Source: a virus
Lineage: Duplodnaviria; Caudoviricetes
Reading direction: 5' to 3' (one strand)
DNA length: 64,000 bases
Virus record (IMG/VR): IMGVR_UViG_3300017700_000721
Location: 54,082 to 118,081 of that record
The translations under genes were made by a program, and so were the position numbers. The stretch's first letter is position 1, and each line of letters starts with the position of its first letter. A model generated the notes under the pieces. It saw only the letters and a program-made list of their open reading frames with translations. It was not told the origin of the DNA and made no database searches. Positions 1-49,309 of the stretch are shown here, in pieces.

Positions 1-212
1 GTGTACTTCAGATGGCCAATCTCGTGATCGAGGTAGCCGTTGTAAACGTCCACCTGCCAATTAGACAGGACGGTCCCAGGCGGAAGTGCTGGGAGGTTTA
101 TGTGACGCCCAGACACGAAGGCCGTCGTTCCGCCGAAGGTTACGTAGGTCCCCCGCCCGGATCGGGCCCTGGCATATTGCTGGGCAAAGTGAGTGAACGA
201 CTGGTGTCTCAT
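1..212 (-). CDS. CobT-like/vWA partner of MoxR-type ATPase, N-terminal part (runs off window edge)
   Basis: Not in the ORF track. Manual translation from ATG at 212 (ATGA overlap with the upstream stop) gives MRHQSFTHFAQQYAR...INLPALP...YNGYLDHEIGHLKYT. This has the HExxH motif typical of phage CobT-like N-termini and follows a CobS-like ATPase. Confidence 0.7.
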   Translation of the reverse strand, partial: MRHQSFTHFAQQYARARSGRGTYVTFGGTTAFVSGRHINLPALPPGTVLSNWQVDVYNGYLDHEIGHLKY

Positions 213-1369
213 TTGCCCTTCGCCACCAAACCGTGGTTCTCGAGGATCTTCTTCGCAACGGCGCTGTTGTCGCGACCCATCCAGTTGAGGATGGCGCAAC
301 GGATAGCTTCCTCGCGGCCGAGTACTGGTTCCATGTCAAACACGTCGATCAGCTTGCGCGTCGAGATGGTGACAGGCAAGACACCGTCGCTGAACGACTT
401 GCGGATCTCCATCGCGGCTTCCACAAACTTCTGGACCACCGCAGGATCACTGTCTGGAAACCGGGCTTTAAGCATGGCGATCTCCTTGTCCTTCGCCAGG
501 TAGCCCACCGTCAGCTTGATCGGGAAGCGGTCGAGCAGCGCGGTGTTCATCACCTCGGTGCCGGTGTACATTCCGCTGTCGTCACCTTTGCCACCCGTGT
601 TGCCAGTCCCTACGACGGTGAACCCAGGCGAGGCTACAATCGTTTCGCCCGTCTCGGGGAGGTAAAGGGTACGCTTCTTCTCCAGAACGGGGTTCAAGAC
701 AGCCGCGATGCTGGCCGGGGTGTAGTCCATCTCGTCAATCAGCAGCGTGATCCCAAGCTTCATGGCAGTCGGAAGGGCGCCGTACATGAAGTAGGTTCCC
801 TTCGACGGATCTGCGCGCATCGATCCGATGAAGTTGCCCACGGTCACGTCGCCGTTCATGTTCACCCGCTTGAGCGGTCGGCCCAGCTGAGCATGGATCT
901 GCTCGACACCGTCGGTCTTACCGCAGCCAGTCGGACCTTCGATATAGACGTTCGATCCCTTCACGAGGCCGAAGGCAACGGCCTTCACGACGGCCGGCAC
1001 GAAGACAAACTCGTTGTTGATCGTCGGCACCATCCCCGCAATGGACGGGTCGACAGTGACCGGAAACTGCTTCTTCAGGTCAGTGAAGAGATCAGACGCA
1101 ACTTCGGCTTGGAAGGCCTTCAGGAACGGCTCGAGGTCGTCGGAAGACTTGCTCTTCCGACCCACCATCCGGAGCAGCTCGGCCGTGATCGGCGACACAA
1201 GCGAAGCAGCTTGACCGAACTCGTTCTTGTACTGGCCTGCACTCTTGCCGTGCTTATCTTGAAGATGCTTCACGAGCGAATGAGCCTGAAACCCACAGTA
1301 TTTGCAGGATGGGCACGAGGCTGCCACTCGATCCCTGAATTCAGCTACTGTCAAAGTCCCGGCCATCAA
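209..1369 (-). CDS. CobS/MoxR-like AAA+ ATPase with N-terminal C2H2 zinc finger
   Basis: Walker A GPTGCGKT, Walker B LLIDEMD, GTGNTGG and NTALLDRF; N-terminal CKYC..HLQDKH. Confidence 0.85.
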   Translation of the reverse strand: MMAGTLTVAEFRDRVAASCPSCKYCGFQAHSLVKHLQDKHGKSAGQYKNEFGQAASLVSPITAELLRMVGRKSKSSDDLEPFLKAFQAEVASDLFTDLKKQFPVTVDPSIAGMVPTINNEFVFVPAVVKAVAFGLVKGSNVYIEGPTGCGKTDGVEQIHAQLGRPLKRVNMNGDVTVGNFIGSMRADPSKGTYFMYGALPTAMKLGITLLIDEMDYTPASIAAVLNPVLEKKRTLYLPETGETIVASPGFTVVGTGNTGGKGDDSGMYTGTEVMNTALLDRFPIKLTVGYLAKDKEIAMLKARFPDSDPAVVQKFVEAAMEIRKSFSDGVLPVTISTRKLIDVFDMEPVLGREEAIRCAILNWMGRDNSAVAKKILENHGLVAKGK

Positions 1370-2272: not shown

Positions 2273-4516
2273 TCAGGCTGCCAGCAGCATCTTGTCATAC
2301 TCGCCCGCTGCGAGCTTGGCCAGGTCAATCTCCTTTTGGAGGCCCCAGACATCGCCCACCTTCGGGGCGACAGTGAGTTGAACCTGCCAGGTCTTGACCT
2401 CGAACTCCATGGCCTTCTTGATGATCGGAGCTACTTCCTGAACCAGCTCGTTCCGCACGAGGAACGCAAGCTCGTCATGGATCTGCATGGCGAAGGCCAC
2501 GTCACGCCATTTGTAGCCGTGAAGCTTGAGAGCCTTGTCCACCTTCACCATCGCAATGCGCGTCACCTCAGCGGCGGTTCCCTGAATAGCGGTGTTCACC
2601 GCGGACCGATTGGCGAAAGCATGGATCTTCGGGTCGGGGTTATCATAGAACGACTTCAGGCTCCGCTTCCGACCGAAGAATGTGGTTGTGTAGCCGTTCT
2701 TCCTGGCAAAAACATGGACCTTACCCATCCATCCGAATAGAACAGGGTGACCACGGACAAACCCGTCGTAGACCTGCTCGGCCGCGGCTCTGGGAATGTC
2801 AGCCTTAATAGCCAGAGTGTAGGCCGTTGCCCCGTAGAATGTTGCAAAGTTGAGCACCTTGCCCACGTCGCGCTTTCTCTTCTTCTCTTCCTTCGACAAG
2901 GCGTGGAATGTGTCAATCGGAATGCCATAAGCAGCGGCTGCCGTGAGAGAGTGGAGGTCATCTCCCTTGGCCAGAGCTCTGAGCCACCTAGGCTCGCCCG
3001 ACATATTGGCACCAATGACCAATTCCTGGCGGTCGTAGTCGAAGGAGAGTAGTTTGTAGCCCTTCGGAGCACGGAAGGCTTGGCGCACTGATGGGATCAT
3101 CAGCACGCCCTTCTGTACTCGTCGCGTGGTGTCAATGTTGACTGACTCACACTGAGCTGGGCAGCCTACACACGTCTCGCGGATGCAAACAATAGGCTCG
3201 CGGCCTTCTTCGTCCTCATCACCCTCTCTAGGGATGACATAAGGAAGGCTACGAACAACAGTCTGCCAATCAGCAGGAGCTTGAGGCGCTTCGCCAGGCT
3301 CTAGCCCTGCTCTCAGATCGATGAGGATGTCCGAGTCGTCAACCTGCGATATGTAATCGGCAGAGTCAGGCGTACCCTTCAAATCTACGGCCATCACTTC
3401 GCGAGCTTCGCCGTTAGAGACGGCCTGAATGTTCACTCCTGTGGCGCCGTCGACGTCCGGATCACCGCCTGGGGCAGAGAACCTGAAAGTCGGAGCTGCA
3501 AAGGTGTTGAAGTTGAACCTAGGTTTGATCTCTCGATCGGAGAGTGCCTGTAGCTTATTGAAGTAGGAACTACGGGCCTTCACAATCTTCTTGTAAGCGA
3601 TGATCGTCTCTACGATCGGATTGGCTCGGGCGAGCTTCTCCAGCGCCTCTTCCTTGGTAACGTGGATTGGGTTCTTGCCCTTGGTCTTGCCTGGCGAAGG
3701 CAAGCCGCCCCGCTCGAACAGAGCGTCGCCGAGCTGCTTAGGGCTGTTGATCTCGAAGGTGTAGCCGATCACCCGGAATATCTGCTCCCGCATGGTAGCA
3801 GCCCGGGTCTCAAGCATCGCCATCTGATTATCGATGTACTCCCGGTTGAGTTCCATCCCGCCGTTGTGTTCCATCCGGCGGACAATGTCGATGAGCAGGG
3901 TGTCAATCTGCACAGCCATCGGGTTCTCAGTCGCAACGTAGGCGTAGTGATCCCACATCTGCATGCCTACGTCGGCGTCAGCACAGGCGTAGTCGGTGCA
4001 TCGCTCCGGTGATTTGGTGGTAATATCCAGGCGACCTGCTTTGATCTCCTCGGGGGTGAAGAGGTCCTCGAACTTGGTCATGTCGATGCCCAAGTCTTCA
4101 TGGGCCACCGTCTTCAGACCAATCTTCTTCCGATCAGGGTCAGCTAGGTAGACAAGCTCAAGCGCATCGTTGAACTTGAAGTCAGGTTTCCACTTCAACC
4201 CCTTCTTGACCACCTGCACCTGCAGGATGTTCAAGTCATACTTGGCGTTGTAGAAGATGGGGGTGTGAGACTCCATCTTCTCTTCCATGAGCTCCCAGAC
4301 AGGCTCAAACGGTAGGTTCGCCTCGGGGTTCACTCGATGGTTAAATGGGACATAAAGGGCTGAGCCCTTCGCAAGAGACACTGACATTCCGGCAATGCCT
4401 GCGCGGCGAGTGTCAAGACTCTTTGCCTCAGTATCCATCCCCATCTGGTTCTTGGGGTGGACTGTGGACAGATATTGCTTCACGTGGTCGAGTGACCTAG
4501 CTAACTCGTACGCCAT
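2273..4516 (-). CDS. polA: Replicative family A DNA polymerase with 3'-5' exonuclease
   Basis: ExoI DTE, ExoII NAKYD, ExoIII YACAD; motif A DYDRQE, motif B RDVGKVLNFATFYG, RSAVNTAIQGTAA, motif C QIHDE. Confidence 0.95.
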   Translation of the reverse strand: MAYELARSLDHVKQYLSTVHPKNQMGMDTEAKSLDTRRAGIAGMSVSLAKGSALYVPFNHRVNPEANLPFEPVWELMEEKMESHTPIFYNAKYDLNILQVQVVKKGLKWKPDFKFNDALELVYLADPDRKKIGLKTVAHEDLGIDMTKFEDLFTPEEIKAGRLDITTKSPERCTDYACADADVGMQMWDHYAYVATENPMAVQIDTLLIDIVRRMEHNGGMELNREYIDNQMAMLETRAATMREQIFRVIGYTFEINSPKQLGDALFERGGLPSPGKTKGKNPIHVTKEEALEKLARANPIVETIIAYKKIVKARSSYFNKLQALSDREIKPRFNFNTFAAPTFRFSAPGGDPDVDGATGVNIQAVSNGEAREVMAVDLKGTPDSADYISQVDDSDILIDLRAGLEPGEAPQAPADWQTVVRSLPYVIPREGDEDEEGREPIVCIRETCVGCPAQCESVNIDTTRRVQKGVLMIPSVRQAFRAPKGYKLLSFDYDRQELVIGANMSGEPRWLRALAKGDDLHSLTAAAAYGIPIDTFHALSKEEKKRKRDVGKVLNFATFYGATAYTLAIKADIPRAAAEQVYDGFVRGHPVLFGWMGKVHVFARKNGYTTTFFGRKRSLKSFYDNPDPKIHAFANRSAVNTAIQGTAAEVTRIAMVKVDKALKLHGYKWRDVAFAMQIHDELAFLVRNELVQEVAPIIKKAMEFEVKTWQVQLTVAPKVGDVWGLQKEIDLAKLAAGEYDKMLLAA

Positions 4517-26063: not shown

Positions 26064-27434
26064 TTAGCCGCTAGCCTTGCCGATGTTGCGGAAGACCACG
26101 TTCTTCTTCGGAGCGAAGACGATCGGGGTTCCATACAGCAGCTGCATCCAGCGGATAGACGGGCTCACGATGGCGAGCTGCATCTTGATCATGGGCGACA
26201 GCTGCTTGAAAGTCAGCGACTGCTGGGTGAGGTCGAGCATCAGGCCGATGAAGGTGTTCGGACGATACACGTTCTGATCGTTCCAGACCGTGCTGTTCAC
26301 GTACACGCCACCGGACTTCGCGCGCGGGACGACGTAGCCGATGAAGTAGGCCACCGCTCCGTTCTTCTCGGTACGATAGACCTTGTAGGCCGTCGCCGGG
26401 AAGGTACCGCCCTGGTCCGCGATCGTCAGCGGAACCATCTGGGTCGTGGCAACCGTGACGGCCGAGCTGAGGGCCGTGGCCGCCGACTCGCCGTACTGGT
26501 TGACCGCGCTCACCGCGTACTTGTAGTCGCCGGCGTCCGTGGTCTTGAACTTCGGCGAGGCCGTTCCGGTCGCCGCAGCCGGCGTGACGGTCGGGGTGTT
26601 CGGCGCCTTGGTCGAGTTGGCCGACAGGGGCGGGGTCGTGCCGGTCTTCACGAACGTGTCCGGCTCGAAGCCAACCAGGCCCGAAGAGGTCTGGACGCTC
26701 GTGACGGGCGTGCCCACCGGGCCAACCTGACCAGCGGAGAAGCGCTGATACTGGTTGTAGTAGTTCGAGAAGTCCGAGAAGACCTTGTTGTTCGAGAAGA
26801 GCTTCATCGGCACGCCGAAGTTCTCGGCGACGAGGTAGGCTCCGAGCTCAACCTGCTCCTTGGTGAGCGGGGCGCCTTCGCAGTCGATGACGTGGCCTGC
26901 GCCACCTTCGATCTGCTTGGTGAGGCTGTTCCACTCGACCGGGACAGCATCGGCGTCGCCGTAGTAGAGGCCGTTGTTCGCCTTGCCCATCAGCCAGAGG
27001 GCGCCATTCGACGTCTCCTGGGCGATGATGTCGGCCGGCACGGTGCGCACGAGGGTCGCGGGGTGGTTGACGGCTCGGGTCGTGCCGAGGTACTTCACGA
27101 GCTGGTTCGTGCGCTCGTAAGTGCTGTCCTCTTCCTGCGGAAGCTCGCCGGACTGGGTGAAGCCGCCGCCCTGGCCGCCGTACTCGAGCAGGCGGTTGTA
27201 TTCCTCGACGGTGGAATAGGCGTCCGTCTTCGGGATCATGTTCCACAGCTTGATGTTGGTCGCGCTGTAGGTGAGCAGCTTGAGCGTGGCTTCCAGGCTC
27301 TCGACTCGCAGGGCATCGAAGCCGGTGCCGGTCGCAGGCATCTGATAGCCGATGTCGAGCGCCTTACGCAGCTCGCCGAGGTCAGCAAGCGAGGAAACCC
27401 CGAAGCCTTCCTGCAGATTGATCTGACCTTCCAT
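26064..27434 (-). CDS. major capsid protein (HK97 fold, SPO1/Twort-like type)
   Basis: ELRKAL.IGY...ALRVESLEATLKLLT, STVEEY, VKYLG, LYYGDA; very high GC3. Confidence 0.9.
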   Translation of the reverse strand: MEGQINLQEGFGVSSLADLGELRKALDIGYQMPATGTGFDALRVESLEATLKLLTYSATNIKLWNMIPKTDAYSTVEEYNRLLEYGGQGGGFTQSGELPQEEDSTYERTNQLVKYLGTTRAVNHPATLVRTVPADIIAQETSNGALWLMGKANNGLYYGDADAVPVEWNSLTKQIEGGAGHVIDCEGAPLTKEQVELGAYLVAENFGVPMKLFSNNKVFSDFSNYYNQYQRFSAGQVGPVGTPVTSVQTSSGLVGFEPDTFVKTGTTPPLSANSTKAPNTPTVTPAAATGTASPKFKTTDAGDYKYAVSAVNQYGESAATALSSAVTVATTQMVPLTIADQGGTFPATAYKVYRTEKNGAVAYFIGYVVPRAKSGGVYVNSTVWNDQNVYRPNTFIGLMLDLTQQSLTFKQLSPMIKMQLAIVSPSIRWMQLLYGTPIVFAPKKNVVFRNIGKASG

Positions 27435-27482: not shown

Positions 27483-28127
27483 TTACTGACCGGCCACCTT
27501 CTTCTGCGCGGCCGCCAGGTCTGCATCGCTGATCTGGCCGGTGGACTCGAACTTGATGGCTGCGGTGAGCCACTGGTTGCTCTCGGGCGTGTTCGGCCCG
27601 AAGGACTTCGCGAGCTGCTCGAGGCCGAACGAGATCTGGCGGCGGGCGGCGGCCTTCTGCTCCGGCGTCATCTCAGCGGCGGTCAGGGCCTTGGCCGGGG
27701 TAAGCGACTTGTTGAGCACCTCGGCCGGCTGGGCCGTGATGGTCTTCGGGGCGGCGACGGTGCCGTCACCCATCTTCTCGATGGCCGCGGTGTTCGCGTC
27801 GATCGACTTCTTCAGGTCCGTGAGCACCCGGATGTTCGCCAGGTTGAACTCGCGACCGTTGGTGATCGACTTCGCCATCGCTTCGAGCGAGCTGTCGATG
27901 TGGGCGCCGAACAAGGAGACGACCTCGTTCAGGAGGTCCGAAACCTCGAGGCCCTTCAGGAGCGGAGCCGAGGCCTTGCCCTTGAGTGCGTCGATCGACT
28001 TGTTCAGCACCTGGACCTCGACGGTCGGCTCGGCAACGACCGCAACGGCGGCCGGCTTCGCGGTGAGATCATTGATCGACTTGAGGAGATCTTCCTCGGT
28101 CACAACGGCGGGGGTGGCGGTGGACAT
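27483..28127 (-). CDS. scaffold-like head protein
   Basis: Between protease and capsid; helical; repeated LLKS/LNKS/MAKS/LKKS/LAKS. Confidence 0.65.
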   Translation of the reverse strand: MSTATPAVVTEEDLLKSINDLTAKPAAVAVVAEPTVEVQVLNKSIDALKGKASAPLLKGLEVSDLLNEVVSLFGAHIDSSLEAMAKSITNGREFNLANIRVLTDLKKSIDANTAAIEKMGDGTVAAPKTITAQPAEVLNKSLTPAKALTAAEMTPEQKAAARRQISFGLEQLAKSFGPNTPESNQWLTAAIKFESTGQISDADLAAAQKKVAGQ

Positions 28128-28131
28128 TGAG

Positions 28132-28935
28132 TTAGCTCCTCGAGTTCGACTTGTAAAGGGTATATTTCACGACCTTACTCGCAAGGTCATAAGACCAGGC
28201 AGGCTTCTGCTTCAAGACGAAGAGAATGGCTTCGTCGTTGGTAAGCGGCCGGGACGCGGTGTCGCTCTTGGCCAGGATCTCTTGCTGAGCCTTGACCACT
28301 TCCTCTGCCACGTGCTTGGCAAAGTCTGCCGGCAAGCCCTCCGTCCCAGCCAGAGCATTGTAGGCTGCGAGGCTCTTGCACATCTTGACGAGGGTAAGCG
28401 GGTGCACCGGAGCGGCTGTCACGGCGACCCCGTGGACGAAGGCCTTCACGATGTTGCCGTTGCGCGTGTCGCGGGCGATCTTGCCGTCGAGTGACAGGCC
28501 CAGGCTTCCCTGGTCACCGTTGACCGACTTCATGATGTTACGGATCTCTACCGCCTTCGGGACGTGCTTGTAAAATTCCCCTTCCACGAAGACGGAGGCA
28601 GAGTCCGGCGCGTTTGGAAAGTCCGACTTGCGGAGGGCTTCCAGCTTGGCGGGGGTGATGATCGAAATTCCCGTCAGGAAACCCACCTGGTCGGCAGGCT
28701 GACGGGAATGGTCCCAATTGACGAAGCCACGCTGGGCGGCGTACGACAGGTCGAGGGACTTGCGCAGGATTGTGTCACCCTGCTGATCGCGGTTCTCGTC
28801 GGAAGCAATCCCCTGAAACCGCCACGGACCTTCATCGCCTTCAGGCGCGATGGCCTTGAAGAGATCGGCCTTAAAGAGGGCTTCCGAGGGACCTTCACCT
28901 AGGCTCGGGTCGGTCGAGATTTCCGATGTGAACAT
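28132..28935 (-). CDS. prohead protease
   Basis: FQGIAS...DQQGD, VNWDH, GLSLDG, VAVT..PV. Confidence 0.85.
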   Translation of the reverse strand: MFTSEISTDPSLGEGPSEALFKADLFKAIAPEGDEGPWRFQGIASDENRDQQGDTILRKSLDLSYAAQRGFVNWDHSRQPADQVGFLTGISIITPAKLEALRKSDFPNAPDSASVFVEGEFYKHVPKAVEIRNIMKSVNGDQGSLGLSLDGKIARDTRNGNIVKAFVHGVAVTAAPVHPLTLVKMCKSLAAYNALAGTEGLPADFAKHVAEEVVKAQQEILAKSDTASRPLTNDEAILFVLKQKPAWSYDLASKVVKYTLYKSNSRS

Positions 28936-28987: not shown

Positions 28988-29971
28988 TTAACATGGCGAG
29001 TCTGGACCGTAGATCTTCCGGATGGCGGATATTATCAGGAGCTCGTGGGCCGGTATTTCCTCGCCGTGACCATGACTTTTCAGCATGTCGGCAGAGGTTG
29101 TCAGCGGCGTGATTGAGGATTGCCTCTTGAGGGACTTCTCCATCCTCTCTTCCATCGCTGAGGCCAGAGCTCTGTCAACCCGCGGTTCGTTCTGGCTCGC
29201 CATGTACAGGATACAATAGCAATGAGGGTGCACGGGCCCAATCGTGAATTGCCATGCGTAGGCCGGGACTCCCCAATTGCTGTTTCCGATCACGTCGGAA
29301 AGGCGGTACATCTTCGGTGAGCCGTCTGAGTTCGTGTGGAGGTCCAGGCAATAGTCACACGCGGCTGGCCTGGGCACCTTGTACACTAGCTCGTCTTCGT
29401 CCTTGTCTACGATTTGTCCTTGCTGGAAGTAGCTGTGAAGCTCGGTCTGCAAAAGACGGTCGATCTGGCTCGTAAAGGACTCTGTTTCGCCTGTAAGGGC
29501 GGACACTAGCTCGGTCAGCGCAGAGTTGCGGGCAACAGATCGGGCAGCAGCGTCTACAAATGTCCCTTTGACTAACACTGAACGCCAATCACGGTCAGCG
29601 TTTGCTATAGCCAGTCTGTATTTGGATTGAACAGCGTCCGTGCGGCTTTCCAGCCAACGCTCGGTGTCGTTGCGCATCTGCGCAAGATGAGCCTTCTCTC
29701 GATCGTTCAGCTGGACGTTGTTATTGTAAACCCACTGGGCGATCTGATCCTTGCTCATGGTCTTCAGGGCGTTAGGGCCCAGAAGAGAGGCTACCTTTCC
29801 CGCCATGTAACTCTGCTCGAGCACTGTCATCCGAGACGTTGAGACTGCTGACGAGATGGCGGTCGGGATTGTCTGACCAAGGCCACGGCCAATTGTGTAG
29901 GCCGAGAAGGCGCTTCCTAGCGCCCTCAAGACCGACATGATGCGACCCTCGGTTTCCCGGCCGAGCAGCAT
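28988..29971 (-). CDS. MuF/SPP1 gp7-like head morphogenesis protein
   Basis: RLLQTE, ACDYC, GPVHPHCYC. Confidence 0.75.
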   Translation of the reverse strand: MLLGRETEGRIMSVLRALGSAFSAYTIGRGLGQTIPTAISSAVSTSRMTVLEQSYMAGKVASLLGPNALKTMSKDQIAQWVYNNNVQLNDREKAHLAQMRNDTERWLESRTDAVQSKYRLAIANADRDWRSVLVKGTFVDAAARSVARNSALTELVSALTGETESFTSQIDRLLQTELHSYFQQGQIVDKDEDELVYKVPRPAACDYCLDLHTNSDGSPKMYRLSDVIGNSNWGVPAYAWQFTIGPVHPHCYCILYMASQNEPRVDRALASAMEERMEKSLKRQSSITPLTTSADMLKSHGHGEEIPAHELLIISAIRKIYGPDSPC

Positions 29972-30307: not shown

Positions 30308-30474
30308 GTGTCGGACTCCAGCTCAGGATCTTCAATAACTTCTTCCAGTCTTCCGCCCATAGCAAGATAGAGCTCTTTCGCCTTCCTCCAAAAGGCATCC
30401 GTCCACTTCGGACGTTCTAAACCCGCCTTCTTCAAGGCTAAGTTCCACAGTTGAGGGCTTCTAATCCAGCTCAC
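30304..30474 (-). CDS. small hypothetical protein (56 aa)
   Basis: Not in the ORF track. GTG start, MSWIRSPQLWNLALKKAG...KELYLAMGG..., fills the gap with 4-nt overlaps on both sides. Confidence 0.6.
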   Translation of the reverse strand: MSWIRSPQLWNLALKKAGLERPKWTDAFWRKAKELYLAMGGRLEEVIEDPELESDT

Positions 30475-30950
30475 GTCTTCTTCGTCAGCCTCACACGCTG
30501 CTCGCGAGTCACCGAGCCACGCTTCAGGATCTTGCTGAGGACCTGCTCGTATTTGTTGTCGGTGTTGGCCACGATGCCCAGGTCGATGCAGCTGATCATA
30601 ACCTCCTCGCCATCTCCTGGAGGAGAGTCAGGGGTGTCAACCTTGACCGCCCGGCAATAGACCTGCGGCGCTCGAACAACCGGCATATTGGTCACGTGCC
30701 AGATACCTTCGAACCCAGAGGCTTGGGTCTCGAAGACGGTGCCCACTCGACCCAGCCAATCGAGGTCAAGGTCGTTACCTTCGATCTTCTCGTTGTAAGC
30801 TGAGTTGTACTGCCGGACGTCGCCGAACTGCTGCTCTTCCCCACGTAGGTTCCGGGCGTAGTCATTGGGATTGATGGTGTCGGGGTCGATTGAACGATAA
30901 TCGTGCTTGTTGAACCCCATCGTAGCGGGATCCCAGTTCTTTGACATCAA
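30471..30950 (-). CDS. hypothetical protein downstream of the second PolA
   Basis: Strong RBS GGAGG; 159 aa. Confidence 0.7.
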   Translation of the reverse strand: MMSKNWDPATMGFNKHDYRSIDPDTINPNDYARNLRGEEQQFGDVRQYNSAYNEKIEGNDLDLDWLGRVGTVFETQASGFEGIWHVTNMPVVRAPQVYCRAVKVDTPDSPPGDGEEVMISCIDLGIVANTDNKYEQVLSKILKRGSVTREQRVRLTKKT

Positions 30951-31021: not shown

Positions 31022-33640
31022 TTACTTGGAAATGGCTTTCCAGTTAAGACCGGCTCTGGTGTCCACCTTGAAGGGCAGAAAACCCGGAAGCGGCTGATGG
31101 AACTTCTCCAAGCTGATCTCTCGGACCTTCTCCACGAGTTCGTTCTTCACCACAAAGATGAGCTCGTCATGCATCTGCAGACCCAGGCGAACGTCATCAA
31201 AGGAATAATCCTTCCTGAGGGTGTTGAAGATCTGTGCCTGCCTAATCTTCAGGATCTCGGCGGCGGTGCCAGCGTTGTGATGGTGCCAGGCAGTCTTCCG
31301 GAAACCGTGAAGAGCAGGACCGCGAGCCGTCTTGATCCCCGGTAGGTACCTGGTCCGGCCGAAGCGGGTTGAGACAGATCCCGTCTTGGCGGCTGCTGAG
31401 AGAATGTTCTCACGATACTGGTCAGCCAGAGAGGCACGGGCCTTGTATCCAGCAATGATCTTCGCGGCCTCTGGCATGGCGATGCCGAGACGTTTAGCCA
31501 GGATAAACTCCTGCATGAGGTACAACAAGGCGAAGTTGATCGTCTTGCCAGCCTGGCGCTTGTCTGGGTTATGAAGGTCAACGCCGGGCGCGGCAGCCAT
31601 TACCTCGTCGTACATCTGGATGTGAAAGTCTACCCCGTTGACGAAAGAGGCTGACAGCACTGGGTCACCTGACAGGCTGGCCCAGGTGACGTACTCGGCC
31701 TGGCCCAGGTCGTTAGACAGAAGGGTGTAACCCGAGGGGGCTTCGATCGTCTCCCGAATAGGGACAACCCGGTTCTGTAGGTTGGGGCTGTCCGCAGTGT
31801 ACCGACCATGAGGTTGACCGTACTGGTTCCAGTTCGTCTGGACGGAGCCGGCGTTGGCGTAAGGCTCCCATTCCTTGAGCTGAGATAGAGTCGACTGGGA
31901 TCCGCGAGCCTCCATGATCGCACCCGCGATCGGATAGCCCATCGCGTCCAGCGCCTGGAGGGTGTCGTCGTCCGTCGAGGCCTTCCCTCCCTTGCTGATG
32001 CGCTGGGTTGGGAGGTTCATCACCTCGAACAGGATGCGAACGCAGTCGCCGGGCGCGTGGGGACGGAACTCCTCTCCGGCAAGCTCGTGACAACGAGCTA
32101 CCAGCCGATCCGTCTCTTTCTGCTGAGCCTCCAGGTTCCGCTGCCAGGTCTCCTTGTTGACGACAAGGGCCGTTCGGTTCATCTCCTCCGTCATCGGCTC
32201 GAGGTTGTGCTCGATCTTCGACGAGTTCGACCCGGCTGGCAAGATGACGTCGAACTTCTCGATGCGGATTTCCTGCATGGTCTCATTATACTCTGTTTTG
32301 GACTCGGTGTCAAGTCCTAATTTACCTTCACCCGCCCTGCGGATCTGGGTCGGATCTTCCACTGTCCTGTAGGATCCGTCCTCGCGGACTACCTTCACGA
32401 TGCCGTTCTCAGTCCGCTTGACTTTCGCCGGATGCCACTGACCCTTCGAGTCACAAATCTCGACTTCAGAGTCGTCCGGGTACGCACCGGTTACAGTTCC
32501 AACTGTCAACAACGTATCCTCTCGAGGCGGGCGGCCCTTGAAAGCCTGAGCGTAGAGTTCCTCGAAGCTAGGCAGCTTGACCTTTGCTCCGTCTTCCTGT
32601 ATATACTGAATAGTAAGCTTGAGGGCCTCGCGAGCTTCGTCGCGCATCCCTTCCCAACGAGCCTCAACCATTGCAGCTAACTCAAAAGATGCCTCCGCAA
32701 TCGCTTCCATTCGTTGCCATTTCGCGTTGTCGCGAATGGCTCTGTTGGCTGCGTCCGGAGACAGGTCTGAGACCTCGACGTACATCTCGCCCCAGAGGGC
32801 TGTGCGCTCCTCGTCTTTCACCTTAGCCCTGTGACGGGCCTCAATCTCTTCAGTGCTCTTGTCTCCGGAGACAAGCGTCTGTAGGGCCTCCGGTGTGTAC
32901 TTCCGGGCCTTCTCGGCGATGGGCTCAAACCTTGAGGGGAGGGCATAAACCTGGGTTTGCAGGACCAGGCTAGCTAACGTCTCAGCTTCTTTCAGATCCT
33001 GAAAGGGCGAGGGGTCACTGTCTAGTGGGAACACCTCGTCAACCCAGAAGACCTTGCAAAGAAGGGCTGGGACTTGCATAGCCATTGCCGCGAAGCAGGT
33101 TGCATTGCCCGAAAGAGCCCAGAATGTCTGGGTCCCCTTCACCGCAATAAGTGACGGTACTCGCATTTTCCCGCTGAGGGCGTCGCTAAGCTCAGCAGCG
33201 TCAAACCCACCGTAGGTGATAGCGTGCGTAGGTACAGTCGCTTCGTCGTAATCCTGACCAATGTCACCTTTTCGCATTAGTGACGGGTCTTGGTTCAGAC
33301 GGCCGTGATCCCACGTGATCTGGGCTATCACGCCCTTCACGTACTGATCAGAGATCTGCTTCAGGTTGTTGGGAGCGTCGTGTTCTTCCCGGCGAGCGTA
33401 ATCCCTCAGAGCCTGCTCGTAAGCCCCTTCGATCCTCTCTTCGTGTAATGACTTCCTCATGAGGGACCCTTCGATGGCTCCCTCGTCCGGATCTGGAGGA
33501 GCTTCGTGGATGTCCCTCTTGATCAACTCCAGAACCATCGCCACCGTAGCTTTAAGGTCAAGCCTGGCTTGCTTTTCGAGCTCGTCTAGCGACTTGTAAG
33601 GAAGCTTACGACGCTTCACCTTTAGCTTGTTGCGGGCCAA
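31022..33640 (-). CDS. second family A DNA polymerase, exonuclease-less, fused to a 454-aa N-terminal region
   Basis: GRYTADSPNLQN, motif A DLGQAE, motif B RQAGKTINFALLY, TRFGRTR, motif C QMHDE; TTG start with AGGAG RBS. Confidence 0.9.
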   Translation of the reverse strand: MARNKLKVKRRKLPYKSLDELEKQARLDLKATVAMVLELIKRDIHEAPPDPDEGAIEGSLMRKSLHEERIEGAYEQALRDYARREEHDAPNNLKQISDQYVKGVIAQITWDHGRLNQDPSLMRKGDIGQDYDEATVPTHAITYGGFDAAELSDALSGKMRVPSLIAVKGTQTFWALSGNATCFAAMAMQVPALLCKVFWVDEVFPLDSDPSPFQDLKEAETLASLVLQTQVYALPSRFEPIAEKARKYTPEALQTLVSGDKSTEEIEARHRAKVKDEERTALWGEMYVEVSDLSPDAANRAIRDNAKWQRMEAIAEASFELAAMVEARWEGMRDEAREALKLTIQYIQEDGAKVKLPSFEELYAQAFKGRPPREDTLLTVGTVTGAYPDDSEVEICDSKGQWHPAKVKRTENGIVKVVREDGSYRTVEDPTQIRRAGEGKLGLDTESKTEYNETMQEIRIEKFDVILPAGSNSSKIEHNLEPMTEEMNRTALVVNKETWQRNLEAQQKETDRLVARCHELAGEEFRPHAPGDCVRILFEVMNLPTQRISKGGKASTDDDTLQALDAMGYPIAGAIMEARGSQSTLSQLKEWEPYANAGSVQTNWNQYGQPHGRYTADSPNLQNRVVPIRETIEAPSGYTLLSNDLGQAEYVTWASLSGDPVLSASFVNGVDFHIQMYDEVMAAAPGVDLHNPDKRQAGKTINFALLYLMQEFILAKRLGIAMPEAAKIIAGYKARASLADQYRENILSAAAKTGSVSTRFGRTRYLPGIKTARGPALHGFRKTAWHHHNAGTAAEILKIRQAQIFNTLRKDYSFDDVRLGLQMHDELIFVVKNELVEKVREISLEKFHQPLPGFLPFKVDTRAGLNWKAISK
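32285..32313 (-). promoter_or_regulatory. internal sigma70-type promoter within the second PolA gene
   Basis: Exact TTGACA-ccgagtccaaaacagag-TATAAT, then 6 nt to an in-frame ATG at 32278 (Met455). Confidence 0.8.
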
Positions 33641-33652
33641 GTGCTTCTCCTG

Positions 33653-35131
33653 TTAGGAGTCCAGCTCCTGGGTGATGTCTACGTCGCGACCGTCTGGATC
33701 GTCGGTGGCCTCGGTCGGCTCTTCAAGGTTCTGGTCCTGCTTCGCCTGGAGCTCTTCCGCTTCCATCTTGTCCAACCTAGCAGTATACAACGGATCAAGG
33801 ATGATGTCTCCCGCCTTCAGCGGCGGCTCGTTGCGGTCTGCGCGAATGTCATTCACTGTCCGGAACGATTTGACCTCGGAGTTGATGATCTCCGAGTCAA
33901 TCTTCCGATCCTCGTCAAGACCCAGGAATTCCAGACGATATCGAGGATCGATCTTCTGGATCAGATTGGTGTTGAGGTTGTTCGCCAGAAATGTCAGCAA
34001 CGGGCGTAGGCCACGCTGCTTTGAGACGGCCTGCTTCTGAGGCCCTGAGCTGTCGAAGGTGACGGCTGCGCCAGACTGGCCAATCTGCCAGTTGATCTCC
34101 GTAGGGTCAATCTGATAAACCCCGCAGGCCTGTTTGACCAGGAAATCAAACATCATGGAGTATTCCATGTCACGGTTTGAGCGGTCAAGCTCCTTCCAAT
34201 CAACCTCACCATCCTTGCCAATCTTCAGCACCGGAGGGTTCCAGGCGTGAGCTGCGTTGCGGATAGCCTGCCGGAAATCACGCTTGAAGACTTGGAACTG
34301 GGTGTCATCAACGTCACCCTTCACGATCATTACACCTTTGGCAGTTCCGCCCTGGGTCAGCTGACCGGCGTTGAACTTGTCGGCGTTCAGCATTGTCGTG
34401 ATGGTTCGAACCAGGATCTCAAGTTCAGAGTACCCGTAGCCCATCATCTGGATGTTGGTCTGCGGGTTACGCACACCAAAGATCATCTCCTTGCGGGAAT
34501 ACTCTGCTACAATACGCTCGTGGAGCACCTGCACGTACCAAGGGTCATCAGACAGAGGATCCGACGCCTTCGAGAGCGATGCCTTCAGCTTACGAATGGT
34601 ACCAGCATCTACGGCCACAACGTAGGAAGGCAGACCGTTGCGGCGACTCACAATCTCGGCGTTGGCCTGGTCAAGCTCCAAACTGTCTCGCATGAACTGT
34701 CGGGTAAAGTCCTCCAGCGAGGCTTCACCGTAGCCCACGGTTCCCATCGTGTAGATCCAATCACGGAGGGCAAGGGTCTTGGCGTTGTCCTTCTTGGCGG
34801 CGTTGTCATCGCTGACGATCTCGTACCCCAGAGTGTAGCGCTGGGTCCGGGGGGTGCAGAAAGCAGCCACCTGGTTCAGCCGGGTCTGGATGATGGACCC
34901 AATGATGGGGTTCTTGGCCATCGCGCGCAGGTCGTAGGTCGACAGTGCAGACTGGGGGCGCTGCATCCACTCCGGACCCATGAACATGGTCAGCGGATCG
35001 TAGAACGTTGTCTGAGGTTCATGTGCCCGATCACGGATCTGCTCGATCGCCTTCTCGATCCGTTCCTCTACGATGGCGGCACCGAAGGAGTCCCCGATGA
35101 TCGTCCTTACGCGCTGACCTAGCGAGGGCAT
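33653..35131 (-). CDS. portal protein
   Basis: Follows TerL; IIQTRLNQVAAF, VDAGTI, RNP...GYGYSELE, QGGTAKG, CGVYQIDPTEIN. Confidence 0.9.
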   Translation of the reverse strand: MPSLGQRVRTIIGDSFGAAIVEERIEKAIEQIRDRAHEPQTTFYDPLTMFMGPEWMQRPQSALSTYDLRAMAKNPIIGSIIQTRLNQVAAFCTPRTQRYTLGYEIVSDDNAAKKDNAKTLALRDWIYTMGTVGYGEASLEDFTRQFMRDSLELDQANAEIVSRRNGLPSYVVAVDAGTIRKLKASLSKASDPLSDDPWYVQVLHERIVAEYSRKEMIFGVRNPQTNIQMMGYGYSELEILVRTITTMLNADKFNAGQLTQGGTAKGVMIVKGDVDDTQFQVFKRDFRQAIRNAAHAWNPPVLKIGKDGEVDWKELDRSNRDMEYSMMFDFLVKQACGVYQIDPTEINWQIGQSGAAVTFDSSGPQKQAVSKQRGLRPLLTFLANNLNTNLIQKIDPRYRLEFLGLDEDRKIDSEIINSEVKSFRTVNDIRADRNEPPLKAGDIILDPLYTARLDKMEAEELQAKQDQNLEEPTEATDDPDGRDVDITQELDS

Positions 35132-35168: not shown

Positions 35169-36659
35169 TTAGCCAAAGTCAGCGGAGAAGGTTGTGGCAC
35201 GCGAAGCTACGAGCGCATGCCAGATGGCCATAACCACGTCGTCGTGGGTGGTCTCGTTGCCAATCCTACCGTGTCGCTGCTGAATACCGTTGAACTCCGT
35301 AACGATGTAGTCAGTCATGATACGGTCTTGGTCGGTCTTGTACGGGAACCTGAACTGTAGGTTCTCAAACAGCGGGCGGATCGAGAGAAGACCTGTCTCC
35401 ATCGACCTCTTGTTCTGACCCGTCACGGTGTGGCCTCGAACAGGCATCCGACTCTTGTTCTTGAAGTGCTCCCGGTAAAGGCCTTGGAACATGTTGTCTT
35501 CAAGAAAGCCCAGGGTTACTTGGTACATTTGGCAGTAGTATTCAATCTGGTTGATCTGCTCCTGCATGAACTGAGGGCGGGCTCGCCAATAGTTCAGAAG
35601 TGTGTAAAGGTTCGCGCTCTTGTCGTACTCCAAAGCTACGATAGCGGTCCAGTCGCCGTCGTTAGATCCCGGTACTGAAAAGTCCACCCCCAGGAAGACA
35701 GGGTTTCCACCTGTATAGTTCCTGGAGTAGGATAGCTGGCGGTCAAACAGTGGCTCGAGAAGGCTCGTCGGGAAGATCGTGGTCTCGTCCGAGAGCGGCT
35801 TGTTCATATACTCCTTGGAGAAGGAGAGACTGCCGACCTTCCGTCGGATAGCCATCAGATCTTCTGCAGAGTAACGATCGGCCCACAGTGGAATGGTCAT
35901 CGCCTCGTCGACGAAAGCGGCGAGCTTTGCTCCCGTGTACTCACCTCCCTGGAGCTGCTCGTGATACATATCGTCGGTATCTTGGGCGGTGCCCACCGTA
36001 ACAATCTGCGACTTGAACCCTTGAAGGCGGACCTTGGCGGTGCCCTTGTCCTTCATGGGGAAGACCACTTCGTTGAAGCGAGTCTTCATCATCTTCCGCA
36101 CGTCAGCTGACCAGCTGTTCTTTTCGTTCAGCACGTCGTCCAGTAGGATCAGCTGCGGATGGCGGCCACGCAAAGGCGACATGAAACCCTTCGCCTTGAT
36201 GACCTTCTGGTTCCCCAGCTGCATCTCGGTTCGGGAGTCAGGGCCGTGCGATCGTCCTTTCGGGAGAAGGGGCCAAAGAGACTCCCGATTGTTCATCAGG
36301 ATCTTCATCTTGTCCAGGTTCTCGACGGCGGTCGGCTGGTCAGGACCAAGGATCAAGATGTCTTGTACCCAAGGATCGTACTTCGCCTTCCAGAGGGCAT
36401 AGGCTCTGATCAGCGAGTGACTCTTCCCGTGATCTCGAGGGGCCATCTCTATCACGTCATCGCCCGTCTTCAGGTGATCCCACCAGATCTTATGCTGAGG
36501 ACCAATCTCAAAGCCCAGCTCCACCTTCTGGAAGACTAGGAAGTTGGTCCTACACAGCTGCCGGACAGCGTGTTTAATCCCTGCGGCGTTACCGCCCAGG
36601 AAGGCTCCGGCTGCTTTCGACTGGCTAGTGCCGGGCCGAGGGAGGTGGTAAAAGGTCAT
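35169..36659 (-). CDS. terL: terminase large subunit
   Basis: APRDHGKS, LRGRHPQLILLDD, LGVDFS, GDWTA, HDDVVMA. Confidence 0.95.
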   Translation of the reverse strand: MTFYHLPRPGTSQSKAAGAFLGGNAAGIKHAVRQLCRTNFLVFQKVELGFEIGPQHKIWWDHLKTGDDVIEMAPRDHGKSHSLIRAYALWKAKYDPWVQDILILGPDQPTAVENLDKMKILMNNRESLWPLLPKGRSHGPDSRTEMQLGNQKVIKAKGFMSPLRGRHPQLILLDDVLNEKNSWSADVRKMMKTRFNEVVFPMKDKGTAKVRLQGFKSQIVTVGTAQDTDDMYHEQLQGGEYTGAKLAAFVDEAMTIPLWADRYSAEDLMAIRRKVGSLSFSKEYMNKPLSDETTIFPTSLLEPLFDRQLSYSRNYTGGNPVFLGVDFSVPGSNDGDWTAIVALEYDKSANLYTLLNYWRARPQFMQEQINQIEYYCQMYQVTLGFLEDNMFQGLYREHFKNKSRMPVRGHTVTGQNKRSMETGLLSIRPLFENLQFRFPYKTDQDRIMTDYIVTEFNGIQQRHGRIGNETTHDDVVMAIWHALVASRATTFSADFG

Positions 36660-47444: not shown

Positions 47445-47630
47445 TTACTTCTCCGAGACTTTAACGTTGAAGATACCGGCCTTCTTGTAAAGACCGAAAG
47501 TATCCTTCACTGTCCCGTGGATGAGGCTTGACAGGACGGTGATCATCTCCACCGTGGTCTTGGAGGAGTCTGTCTCCACCCAAGCCTCGGCAACCTTCTC
47601 GTCGACGGTAAAGGTTACGGTCCTCATCAC
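47445..47630 (-). CDS. hypothetical protein
   Basis: Packed ORF. Confidence 0.5.
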   Translation of the reverse strand: MMRTVTFTVDEKVAEAWVETDSSKTTVEMITVLSSLIHGTVKDTFGLYKKAGIFNVKVSEK

Positions 47631-49309
47631 ACGCCCCGGAAGCCGGCGCAGACCTTGAGCAGGTCCGTCGTGATTTCCTTGCCTGCCGCCTCGTATCGAG
47701 CCGCCAGCTTGAGGATGTTCTTGACGTCACGGCCGGACATCTCCTTCTTCTCGACCTCCCAGAAGGTCATCAGCTCGGCGATCTGGGCGTCCGTCAACGA
47801 CTTCAGGAACTGATCCCGTAGGACGAGCCAGATCTTGCGGAGCTCCTCCTTCTTCGGATAGTCGAACTTGATGATCGCCATCATTCGGCTGAGAATGGCG
47901 TCGTCCATCGTGTCGGCGCGGTTGGTCGTCAGGAACATGGTGTTGTCCTGGTACTCGAGGGTGCGCAGGAAGACGGCCACTACCGCATTCTGCTTGAGGT
48001 CGGTGCCGCGGGCCCGGCCGAATACATCAAACTCGTCGAGCAGGACCGGGCAGTCCCAGGCCTGAGCCAGCTTGTAGAACTTGAGCAGGTTCTGCTCGAT
48101 CTTCTCGGCCTCGGTGCCCAGCTGACCCGAATGGATCTTCAGGAGCGGCTTCTTCCGAAACTCGGCGTAGACCTCGGCCGTGAGTGTCTTCGCCAAACCC
48201 GGAGGTCCGGCGAGCAGGATGTAGTTGCCGCCCGACTTACCCTGCACGATGTCTTCCTGGGGAACGTCCATGTCGTGGGTGAGCACGTCGAGCACGTCGG
48301 CGTACATCTCCGGCAGGACGAGCTTGGAGCGCATCTTCTCGTCGTAGACGTAGAGATCGACGTCCTGCACGTGGACCTTGATCTCGACGTGCTGACCCAG
48401 ATGATAGACAGTCATGTTCAGCTGCCAGGGAGCCCGGCTGAACGCACTGTCGGGGAGGTCCTTCTTGGACTCGATCACCGCCTTGAGACCCGGGTCAATG
48501 TAGGGGTTGTCAGGGTCCGACACCTTGTATTGGCTGACGGTGACCTTCGTCGCGTTCATCGGGTCGTTGTGAACCAGGCGGCCGGCGTTGTCGTTCATCA
48601 GATCAACGGTCTTCTTGGGACGGCGGTTCCAGCGGCTGTAGTAGCTGTCTTCCTCGTCGGTGACTTCCACCGAGTGGTTGTTCAGAAGCACAAGCTGCTC
48701 ACCGAAACGGGGACGGAGGTCCTTGTATCGAGTCAGCTGCTCTTGATAGAGCTCGTGAAGCTCCGGGGTTTCCTTCTGCCAGCCCATCCGACGGAGGGCT
48801 TGGTCAGCCGTCATGCCCGATGACTTGCCCGCGGTCAGATGCTCACGGTTCTTGCTGACCGTCCCCTTCACGTTCTGGATGTATTCCAGCTCGATGTAGG
48901 CTTCCTGCTCATGGTCCCGCTTCTTCACGGGCGGGTAGTAGCGCAGGCCCACCACGAGCGCCGGGACCGGGTTGTTGCCGATCTTGAACACCCACCCTTC
49001 GATGGCGCCTTCGACGATGTAGTCAATCATGCCGGCGCAGAGGGCCGCCGCGGAGGCAATCTTTCCGCCTGTCGGGTTCTCCTGGGCGGTCTTCCAGGAG
49101 TTCATCTGCGAGCGGATCGCACGGAAAACGTCCGGCTTCCCGGGCTCCGGCTTCAACAGCTCGTAGAACGCCCGGAACTGGTTCGAATGGAGCGTCCGGA
49201 TGTCGACGCCGAAGGTGCCTTGGTCAAGGCCTTCTTCCGGAACGGCGCCGGTGTTGATACCGATGGCGGTGAACTTGGCCCGGTGTTCGTTGGGCAGATT
49301 GACGATCAT
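47627..49309 (-). CDS. AAA+ ATPase
   Basis: GPPGLAKTLTAE, LLDEFD, FLRTLEY, FLTTNR, AILSR, SGRDVKN. Confidence 0.9.
   Translation of the reverse strand: MIVNLPNEHRAKFTAIGINTGAVPEEGLDQGTFGVDIRTLHSNQFRAFYELLKPEPGKPDVFRAIRSQMNSWKTAQENPTGGKIASAAALCAGMIDYIVEGAIEGWVFKIGNNPVPALVVGLRYYPPVKKRDHEQEAYIELEYIQNVKGTVSKNREHLTAGKSSGMTADQALRRMGWQKETPELHELYQEQLTRYKDLRPRFGEQLVLLNNHSVEVTDEEDSYYSRWNRRPKKTVDLMNDNAGRLVHNDPMNATKVTVSQYKVSDPDNPYIDPGLKAVIESKKDLPDSAFSRAPWQLNMTVYHLGQHVEIKVHVQDVDLYVYDEKMRSKLVLPEMYADVLDVLTHDMDVPQEDIVQGKSGGNYILLAGPPGLAKTLTAEVYAEFRKKPLLKIHSGQLGTEAEKIEQNLLKFYKLAQAWDCPVLLDEFDVFGRARGTDLKQNAVVAVFLRTLEYQDNTMFLTTNRADTMDDAILSRMMAIIKFDYPKKEELRKIWLVLRDQFLKSLTDAQIAELMTFWEVEKKEMSGRDVKNILKLAARYEAAGKEITTDLLKVCAGFRGV

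Follow-up and report, generated by a model that had tools for sequence, protein, structure and literature searches.

A family A DNA polymerase gene in the head module of an uncultured tailed phage, with two predicted products and a candidate head-targeting segment

Tailed phages inject RNA polymerases, ADP-ribosyltransferases, anti-restriction enzymes, and toxins. The virion RNA polymerase of phage N4 (gp50, 3,500 amino acids (aa)) has proven packaging and is injected before phage gene expression. The internal proteins of T4 and its Alt protein carry a capsid-targeting sequence that is removed by the gp21 protease, and the ejection proteins of the giant phages SPN3US and phiKZ have propeptides. 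In-frame internal starts that yield a shorter product sharing the C-terminal domain are found in T7 gene 4A/4B, lambda C/Nu3 and phiX174 A/A*. We know of no injected phage DNA polymerase. Here, we describe X-Pol, a gene in the head module of an uncultured tailed phage in which an N-terminal module (X) is fused to a family A DNA polymerase (Pol). It lies in a stretch of 64,000 nucleotides (nt), below called the window, that spans positions 54082-118081, i.e., the second half, of the 118,081-bp IMG/VR virus record IMGVR_UViG_3300017700_000721. The whole of the data is best explained by a two-product gene whose long product is targeted to the head, a reading to which we give a probability of about 0.45. 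Coordinates of all features are collected in Table 1.

The closest architectural kin of X-Pol are the multidomain proteins of phage head modules known as polyvalent or DdrB-like proteins. DdrB-like ParB domains are typical of late-gene, head-delivered phage proteins, the processed form of which is presumed to travel in the head (PMC5512222). X-Pol unites ParB-like, Tudor, and PolA domains in a single protein encoded between portal and MuF (10 loci), and it resembles polyvalent proteins such as phage P1 DdrB in being a multidomain late-gene protein beside portal/MuF with a fold of the ParB/sulfiredoxin (Srx) superfamily. It differs from them in that its ParB-like part has no Pfam match and seemingly no conserved arginine, in the lack of an MPTase or other hub domain, and in a cargo that is predicted to be made separately as well, from an internal promoter. 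No family A DNA polymerase domain is mentioned in the main text of the survey of polyvalent proteins, where "DNA polymerase" occurs in the reference list only (PMC5512222). We place X-Pol in this head-module class as a variant whose cargo is new and whose embedded promoter is an unusual design.

Other described systems share single traits with this locus. As proposed for X-Pol, N4 gp50 and the virion RNA polymerases of crAss-like and giant phages are capsid-carried polymerases acting on the incoming genome; gp50, however, is a DNA-dependent RNA polymerase, whereas X-Pol is a DNA polymerase and a candidate for head packaging. A short N-terminal segment with a protease motif, as predicted for X-Pol, recalls the T4 internal proteins, Alt and the SPN3US and phiKZ proteins, but the motif is L-x-K/[SAG] here (the slash marks the cleavage point) versus L/I-x-E in T4 and S/A/G-x-E in phiKZ, and the protease family differs. 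Unlike the nested genes of T7, lambda, and phiX174, X-Pol has an embedded consensus promoter of its own and a leaderless start for the predicted short form, and the promoter DNA is conserved across relatives that are ~40% identical in protein. A literature search for virion or packaged DNA polymerases in phages returned only papers on animal viruses (hepadnaviruses and herpesviruses).

The X-Pol frame runs uninterrupted across 872 codons, and the exact 872-aa protein is present in a large protein collection. Its TTG start lies 12 nt past the portal stop codon and 6 nt past an AGGAG Shine–Dalgarno sequence. A preliminary description of this stretch, made from the sequence alone, had placed a second PolA gene 12 nt after the portal stop, between the portal and MuF/protease/capsid genes, and frame, start, and neighbours were all verified. 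PF00476 was the sole Pfam match on X-Pol, and PHROGs returned DNA polymerase families only. In the full-length AlphaFold model, the individual domains were good (predicted local distance difference test score (pLDDT) 83.9).

The argument for head targeting begins with the motif L-x-K-[SAG], which occurs 1.43 times per 1000 aa genome-wide (114 open reading frames (ORFs)). The two highest densities in the genome, a 15-20 times enrichment, belong to the scaffold (six copies in 214 aa, Poisson P 1.7e-7) and the prohead protease (six copies in 267 aa, P 6e-7). The same pattern was seen in 3/3 relatives examined, where the capsid protein always carries L-R-K-A at residue 22-24. In SPO1, L-N-K-A is found at capsid residue 21, with five sites in the scaffold and three in the protease. 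MuF homologues have one aligned and conserved [LM]-x-K-[SAG] site just past the MuF core, which reads Met-Glu-Lys-Ser in this phage. The proposal that a [LIMV]xK/[SAG] pattern marks the head proteins was thus borne out, in the form [LM]-x-K-[SAG], in the scaffold, the protease, the capsid N-terminus, and the C-terminal site of MuF. From this distribution we infer L-x-K/[SAG] to be where this Herelleviridae-type protease family cuts; the literature on Herelleviridae capsid cleavage yielded no direct statement of the site. A census of the motif would offer a simple signature for predicting head-internal proteins in Herelleviridae-like phages.

Module X carries such a site close to its N-terminus. 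At the aligned position, [LMFV]-x-K-[SAGTN] was present in 26/38 relatives, and in 31/38 if Arg is allowed at P1. The site ends a disordered, length-variable acidic loop, over which pLDDT drops to ~54 (residues 51-60 of the N-terminal model) or <50 (residues 53-61 of the full-length model). Two near-identical SLMRK sites had been reported in X; both are present (residues 59-64 and 120-125), and only the first is kept among relatives, the second being probably fortuitous. The MuF site of this phage, like the X site, has Met at P3. Residues 1-63 are most likely a capsid-targeting propeptide. X would be a substrate of the prohead protease and would therefore lie inside the prohead at maturation. 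The protease motif in X is the strongest indirect argument for head packaging, although in it one inferential step stands on another.

The second line of evidence is synteny. A pattern search keyed to the polymerase block specific to this family brought together ~30 loci from IMG/VR and Joint Genome Institute metagenomes. The order TerL-portal-[X-Pol]-orf159-(orf111)-MuF-protease-scaffold-major capsid protein, with either X-Pol or separate X and Pol in brackets and with orf111 usually present, was kept in 10/10 loci with enough flank. The synteny search that the preliminary description had suggested thus found PolA beside portal and MuF genes in related phages, and homologues were located in head modules in all loci in which the flank was long enough. 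In SPO1, the portal gene is directly followed by the protease gene with none between, and for this reason the X-Pol/orf159/orf111/MuF block is, by comparison of gene orders, an insertion characteristic of this uncultured clade. The head module had no megablast match among GenBank phages, and searches for related loci with stand-alone X proteins or their alignments returned nothing usable.

To characterize module X, we searched its residues 1-470 in a profile-free scan of 1.8 billion representative proteins, which yielded 36 representatives at E<=1e-3, ~17 of them fused. PF00476 was found in 10/10 scanned long matches (>700 aa), and no Pfam family in any of 10 scanned matches of 360-520 aa. An AlphaFold2 model of the N-terminal module was confident (pLDDT 87.5, predicted template modelling score (pTM) 0.72). 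It begins with helices 16-46 and 51-86, which are connected by the low-confidence acidic loop. The alpha/beta domain that follows was matched by Foldseek to ParB/Noc (E 5e-4 to 3e-3) and to sulfiredoxin (probability 1.0, template modelling score (TM) by target length 0.5-0.6), and against BFVD to many viral ParB/Srx proteins (TM (target) up to 0.69). Pfam ParB gave no match in any of 38 members at E<=1. In place of the ParB Gly-Glu-Arg-Arg box, members of the family show a Gly and then residues that are small or acidic (Ala/Thr/Glu at the Gly-x-x-Arg positions; alignment by eye), so the fold seems to be without the arginines of the nucleotide-binding box. Because there is no ParB profile match and the arginine box seems to be lost, the domain is probably a binding module rather than a nucleoside triphosphatase or nuclease.

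Further along X, the most conserved residues (Y232, E239, P240, and R246) all lie in the helical region of residues 216-366. The barrel after it superposes on the PHF1 Tudor domain (Z 8.7, root-mean-square deviation 1.3 A, 53/55 residues), and the same region gave weak Agenet/Myosin_N profile matches. Both folds suspected earlier were thereby recovered: the degenerate ParB-like segment by Foldseek (ParB/Noc and sulfiredoxin) with no Pfam match, and the Tudor/SH3-like segment as an AlphaFold barrel. Residues 442-455 form a disordered linker in the model. In VIA-align of the whole N-terminal model, the Tudor domain and long helices accounted for most of the signal; the long-helix matches (F-BAR and similar, Z ~8) were taken as generic. 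Together, synteny, the conserved protease motif, and kinship in architecture with head-delivered ParB-bearing proteins lend support to head packaging, as far as sequence and analogy can indicate it.

The polymerase domain was assigned with high scores. PF00476 matched residues 502-868 with an E-value of 4.7e-59 (200.7 bits against a curated cut-off of 34.3), and the domain aligned end to end with residues 205-602 of 605 of the Klenow fragment (E 1.7e-39), which outranked the Taq and Bst polymerases, with Pol nu and Pol theta far behind. Like the Klenow fragment of E. coli Pol I, X-Pol has the whole polymerase domain, complete with motifs A, B, and C as well as the Glu of the steric gate and the Phe/Tyr of the O-helix. 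D644, D825, E826, R695, K699, and Y707 align with Klenow D705, D882, E883, R754, K758, and Y766, respectively. Invariance was judged on an alignment of 17 full-length fused relatives, and because the residues of all three motifs are fixed or almost fixed in it, the polymerase should be active and deoxynucleotide-selective. Unlike E. coli Pol I, X-Pol has neither a 5' nuclease nor a 3'-5' exonuclease, and its polymerase is preceded by a ParB-like/Tudor module and encoded in a phage head module. Klenow R841, N845, and Q849 are also replaced, by K782, H786, and A790 of an invariant W-H-H-H-N block. These Klenow residues contact the template as well as the minor groove at the primer end, and the block is therefore expected to alter fidelity or substrate handling.

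No exonuclease family, PF01612 included, was found in X-Pol or among the 25 Pfam families listed for 37 relatives, and no exonuclease-like fold was seen in the N-terminal AlphaFold model, which shows other folds; the absence of a 3'-5' exonuclease claimed for this second PolA was thus upheld. The complete, exonuclease-bearing (exo+) PolA claimed elsewhere in the window was confirmed by matches to both PF01612 and PF00476. It belongs to a replisome operon together with two helicases and is 31% identical to the head-module polymerase over 226 aa. In a quick maximum-likelihood tree, in which long branches make deeper placement unsafe, the head-module polymerases formed one clade on a long stem (Shimodaira–Hasegawa-like approximate likelihood ratio test (SH-aLRT) 100), separate from the first PolA and from the Salmonella Pol I, T7, T5-like, and P23-45 polymerases. 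This phylogeny of both polymerases, suggested with the first description, sets the head-module clade apart from the exo+ PolA.

The evidence for a second product comes from the linker between X and Pol. A promoter with a 12/12 match to the consensus lies there within the coding frame, and the ATG of Met455, 6 nt past the -10 hexamer, is predicted to start a leaderless 418-aa polymerase-only product. Such a 12/12 promoter (N16/17 spacing) stands directly 5' of the Pol domain in 12/12 related loci covering the place and is the sole 12/12 site in each of them. Relatives differ in how the -10 hexamer is translated: some have Tyr-Asn there, others Ile-Ile. Only these two frames of TATAAT are free of a stop codon, and both occur; thus, the DNA rather than the protein is under selection. 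Fused forms have an ATG or GTG 5-7 nt past the -10 hexamer, and the loci L008-L010 have a Shine–Dalgarno sequence and start 15-19 nt past the promoter. On this comparison, a polymerase-only product is predicted to be universal in the family and the fusion to be an extra in part of it. As the polymerase-only product would be present everywhere, packaging would not be the sole mode of action.

The genome as a whole contains 17 perfect TTGACA-N17-TATAAT sites, every one of them on the coding strand; the opposite strand has none. Perfect promoters in the window (minus strand) are at positions 1419, 5420, 32313, 42556, 43073, 46133, 49699, and 52122. About five of the 17 have an ATG 5-6 nt downstream; leaderless mRNAs therefore seem common in this phage, and the frequent promoter–ATG pairs may hint at a host with frequent leaderless translation. 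In SPO1, strong consensus promoters are early ones read by the host RNA polymerase. By analogy, the X-Pol promoter may be an early promoter for the host RNA polymerase, or a booster for the downstream capsid genes. No profile match to sigma-factor region 2 was found in the genome; a T7-type RNA polymerase gave no profile match there either, but that profile was also silent in all control genomes and is hence uninformative. The idea of a Pol-orf159 unit bounded by an intrinsic terminator was rejected: there is one candidate after orf159 in the window, and none is conserved in relatives.

We propose the following mechanism. Read-through transcripts from the terminase and portal genes would yield the 872-aa X-Pol, which the N-terminal 63 residues most likely direct into the prohead as a capsid-targeting propeptide. 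The prohead protease would cut X-Pol after K63, and the remainder of ~91 kDa, comprising the degenerate ParB-like fold, the helical hairpin, the Tudor domain, and the exonuclease-less Pol I-type polymerase, would be kept in the head and exit with the DNA. From the sigma-70-type promoter in the linker, a leaderless mRNA beginning at the Met455 ATG would supply free 418-aa polymerase in the infected cell. The enzyme would be an active, deoxynucleotide-selective, non-proofreading polymerase with altered minor-groove contacts, suited to gap filling or to primer/3'-end extension, with bulk replication left to the exo+ PolA. Incorporation of X-Pol into the head is, on sequence grounds, somewhat favoured over its opposite. 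We put forward the whole chain including ejection tentatively, as the less probable side of the question, and ejection with an early role on the incoming genome appears doubtful. It is likewise unlikely, if conceivable, that X-Pol is the first DNA-dependent DNA polymerase packed and injected by a tailed phage, addressed by a propeptide, acting before phage expression and resupplied from an embedded leaderless promoter. In that case, its role before expression would be to fill gaps or ends, or to extend host-made transcripts as primers.

Several observations weigh against a head-targeted long product. The X site of this phage has Met rather than Leu at P3, and the second SLMRK copy sits in a well-folded part and is lost even in a 63%-identical relative. 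The ParB likeness of the model is at fold level only (Foldseek E ~1e-3), and the inter-domain arrangement in the full-length AlphaFold model is uncertain (pTM 0.50). Tblastn of the X module against 50,697 GenBank phage records gave no match. The internal promoter may mainly boost the downstream capsid genes. Pol has an ORF to itself in L003, L009, and L010, and apparently also in L008 and L012; in these split relatives, covalent head delivery is therefore not needed for its function. Finally, to our knowledge there is no need for an injected DNA polymerase in any tailed phage.

In the split relatives L003, L009, and L010, X is reduced to 170-200 residues and is without the ParB-like and Tudor parts; what remains in this short X is the N-terminal motif along with the L-x-K-S site and a portion of the helical region. 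In L003, the separate Pol ORF begins at the equivalent of the Met455 start. The short X ORF (1935-2450) and the Pol ORF (2404-3672) of that locus overlap by 47 nt in different frames; either the split is genuine or a fused gene has suffered a read error of one base. In the quick tree, split forms are not a single clade and fall in more than one place. Two further loci are irregular. In L033 (IMGVR_UViG_3300023443_001259, 7.5 kb), Pol-orf159 is followed by a small terminase-like gene, TerL, portal, and X; this contig looks mis-joined or artificially circularised. In L035, the most distant relative, the portal gene is broken into two overlapping frames (697-2182), and no perfect promoter precedes the polymerase, while two are present farther downstream (5156 and 5842).

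In the strongest alternative, which still strikes us as unlikely, X is a DNA-binding factor associated with the portal or with packaging; it tethers the polymerase to the DNA being packaged and is not kept in the virion. X might be transient like the scaffold and degraded at L-x-K-S, or might act on the concatemer, and the polymerase would, for instance, fill in nicks and gaps, help to resolve branches, or copy terminal repeats, a job that the free isoform would do untethered. The place of the gene directly after the terminase and portal genes at a 12-nt spacing fits this explanation, and ParB-like and Tudor folds suit tethering to DNA or protein. The coexistence of split and fused forms also makes X and Pol look like partners rather than a cargo with an address tag. 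On the other hand, a single conserved site near the N-terminus resembles the removal of a propeptide and not degradation; the scaffold has 5-7 sites. The capsid genes are of the Herelleviridae type, another point in favour, yet SPO1 does without any such gene between portal and protease, so this type of capsid has no general need of the function.

Cultured members of the Herelleviridae have long terminal repeats, which bears on the copying of terminal repeats at packaging. The "direct terminal repeat" (DTR) of the record under study is an exact 123-bp overlap (G000 1-123 and 117959-118081). A repeat of merely 123 bp looks like an assembly overlap and counts against a packaging factor; most likely it reflects the closure of a circular assembly rather than a physical repeat. 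A polymerase copying terminal repeats is thus unsupported by the genome ends.

Less probable again is that Pol is an accessory cytoplasmic polymerase for repair or replication that has inherited its position, the fusion having no targeting role. What speaks for this is the perfect promoter and start that the polymerase has to itself in 12/12 loci covering the place, a promoter of the type that also precedes the operon holding the exo+ PolA (one of the 17), together with the occurrence of Pol as a separate ORF in several relatives and the scatter of the split forms over more than one place in the quick tree. It does not account for the open frame through the promoter, which has been retained in ~17 clusters diverged to ~40% identity, for the post-portal position kept in every locus, or for the head-protein protease motif borne by X.

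A sequencing or assembly artefact behind the fusion, or a second polymerase that is a decaying pseudogene, is very improbable and is refuted as far as sequence data can do so: nothing in its favour was found beyond the X/Pol frame overlap of L003, possibly a read error there, whereas fused proteins of 800-920 aa were recovered from numerous independent metagenomes, no catalytic residue varies, and the quick tree unites the family in a single long-stemmed clade (SH-aLRT 100). An artefact of this kind had been named in the preliminary description as a possible refutation.

Table 1. Features of the X-Pol gene and its surroundings in the 64,000-nt window (positions counted from the first letter of the window)
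Feature	Position	Strand	Evidence or remark
X-Pol gene, 872 aa: module X (residues 1-454) fused in frame to family A polymerase	31022..33640	-	
12-nt spacer between portal stop and TTG start	33641..33652	-	contains AGGAG
Residues 1-63 (candidate propeptide): basic N-terminus, conserved Arg-Arg-x-Leu-Pro motif, helix 16-46, acidic disordered loop	33452..33640	-	
Candidate prohead-protease site K63/S64, L-M-R-K/S, residues 60-64	33449..33463	-	
Second SLMRK/G copy, K124/G125, residues 120-125	33266..33283	-	
Degenerate ParB/sulfiredoxin-like alpha/beta fold, residues 98-200	33041..33349	-	Foldseek vs PDB, BFVD
Helical region with long hairpin (263-349), residues 216-366	32543..32995	-	
Tudor/SH3-like barrel, residues 385-441	32318..32488	-	
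Internal promoter TTGACA-N17-TATAAT, 12/12 match, within coding frame	32285..32313	-	
In-frame ATG of Met455, 6 nt past -10 hexamer	32276..32278	-	
Family A polymerase domain (thumb, palm, fingers), residues 455-872	31025..32278	-	PF00476
Motif A, residues 642-651; D644 invariant, E649 nearly invariant	31688..31717	-	
Motif B / O-helix, residues 695-709; R695, K699, N702, Y707 invariant, F703 nearly	31514..31558	-	
Family-specific K-T-A-W-H-H-H-N-A-G-T-A-A-E block	31256..31297	-	alignment of relatives, Klenow alignment
Motif C, residues 823-826; D825, E826 invariant	31163..31174	-	
Large terminase (TerL)	35169..36659	-	phrog_38
Portal protein	33653..35131	-	PF04860, phrog_12
orf159, conserved gene 3' of Pol	30471..30950	-	without family match
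MuF-like minor head protein, orf327	28988..29971	-	Cys/His signature of MuF by eye; conserved
Prohead protease, 267 aa, 6 L-x-K-[SAG]	28132..28935	-	phrog_1028
Scaffolding-type protein, 214 aa, 6 L-x-K-[SAG]	27483..28127	-	position matches SPO1 gp3.3
Major head protein, Herelleviridae-like, L-R-K/A at residues 22-25	26064..27434	-	phrog_752
First PolA, exo+ family A polymerase	2273..4516	-	PF01612 + PF00476

All long ORFs of the window are on the minus strand, on which the order is TerL, portal, X-Pol, orf159, orf111, MuF-like, prohead protease, scaffold-type, and major head protein. The major head protein was 36-40% identical to SPO1-type capsid proteins (36% for SPO1 itself). The product of orf159 had no family match in Pfam or PHROGs, and only weak PRC-barrel/RimM-like structural look-alikes (TM <0.5) were found for it. 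The gene stands after the polymerase in every related locus reaching far enough, sometimes beyond 0.7-0.9 kb of extra sequence, and its product may be a partner of the polymerase. Elsewhere in the window, the phage encodes a Lon-like ATP-dependent protease at 47627-49309 (minus strand, phrog_29662, E 1.5e-84) and, at 209-1369 (minus strand, phrog_249, E 3.6e-62), an AAA ATPase of the CobS/MoxR type with the annotation "porphyrin biosynthesis". No tRNA genes were found in the window.

Whatever the answer on packaging, the promoter has been kept letter-perfect inside a coding linker while the protein has drifted to ~40% identity, and one gene would give rise to both a tethered and a free polymerase, a compact regulatory design. 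A 418-aa, naturally exonuclease-free relative of Pol I with unusual template-contact residues may also interest enzymologists. If packaging by way of a head-targeted long product is true, X-Pol would be a new kind of injected enzyme, with which the phage would supply its own DNA synthesis in the first seconds of infection; this would bear on how the incoming genome survives nucleases and defence systems and on how replication starts.

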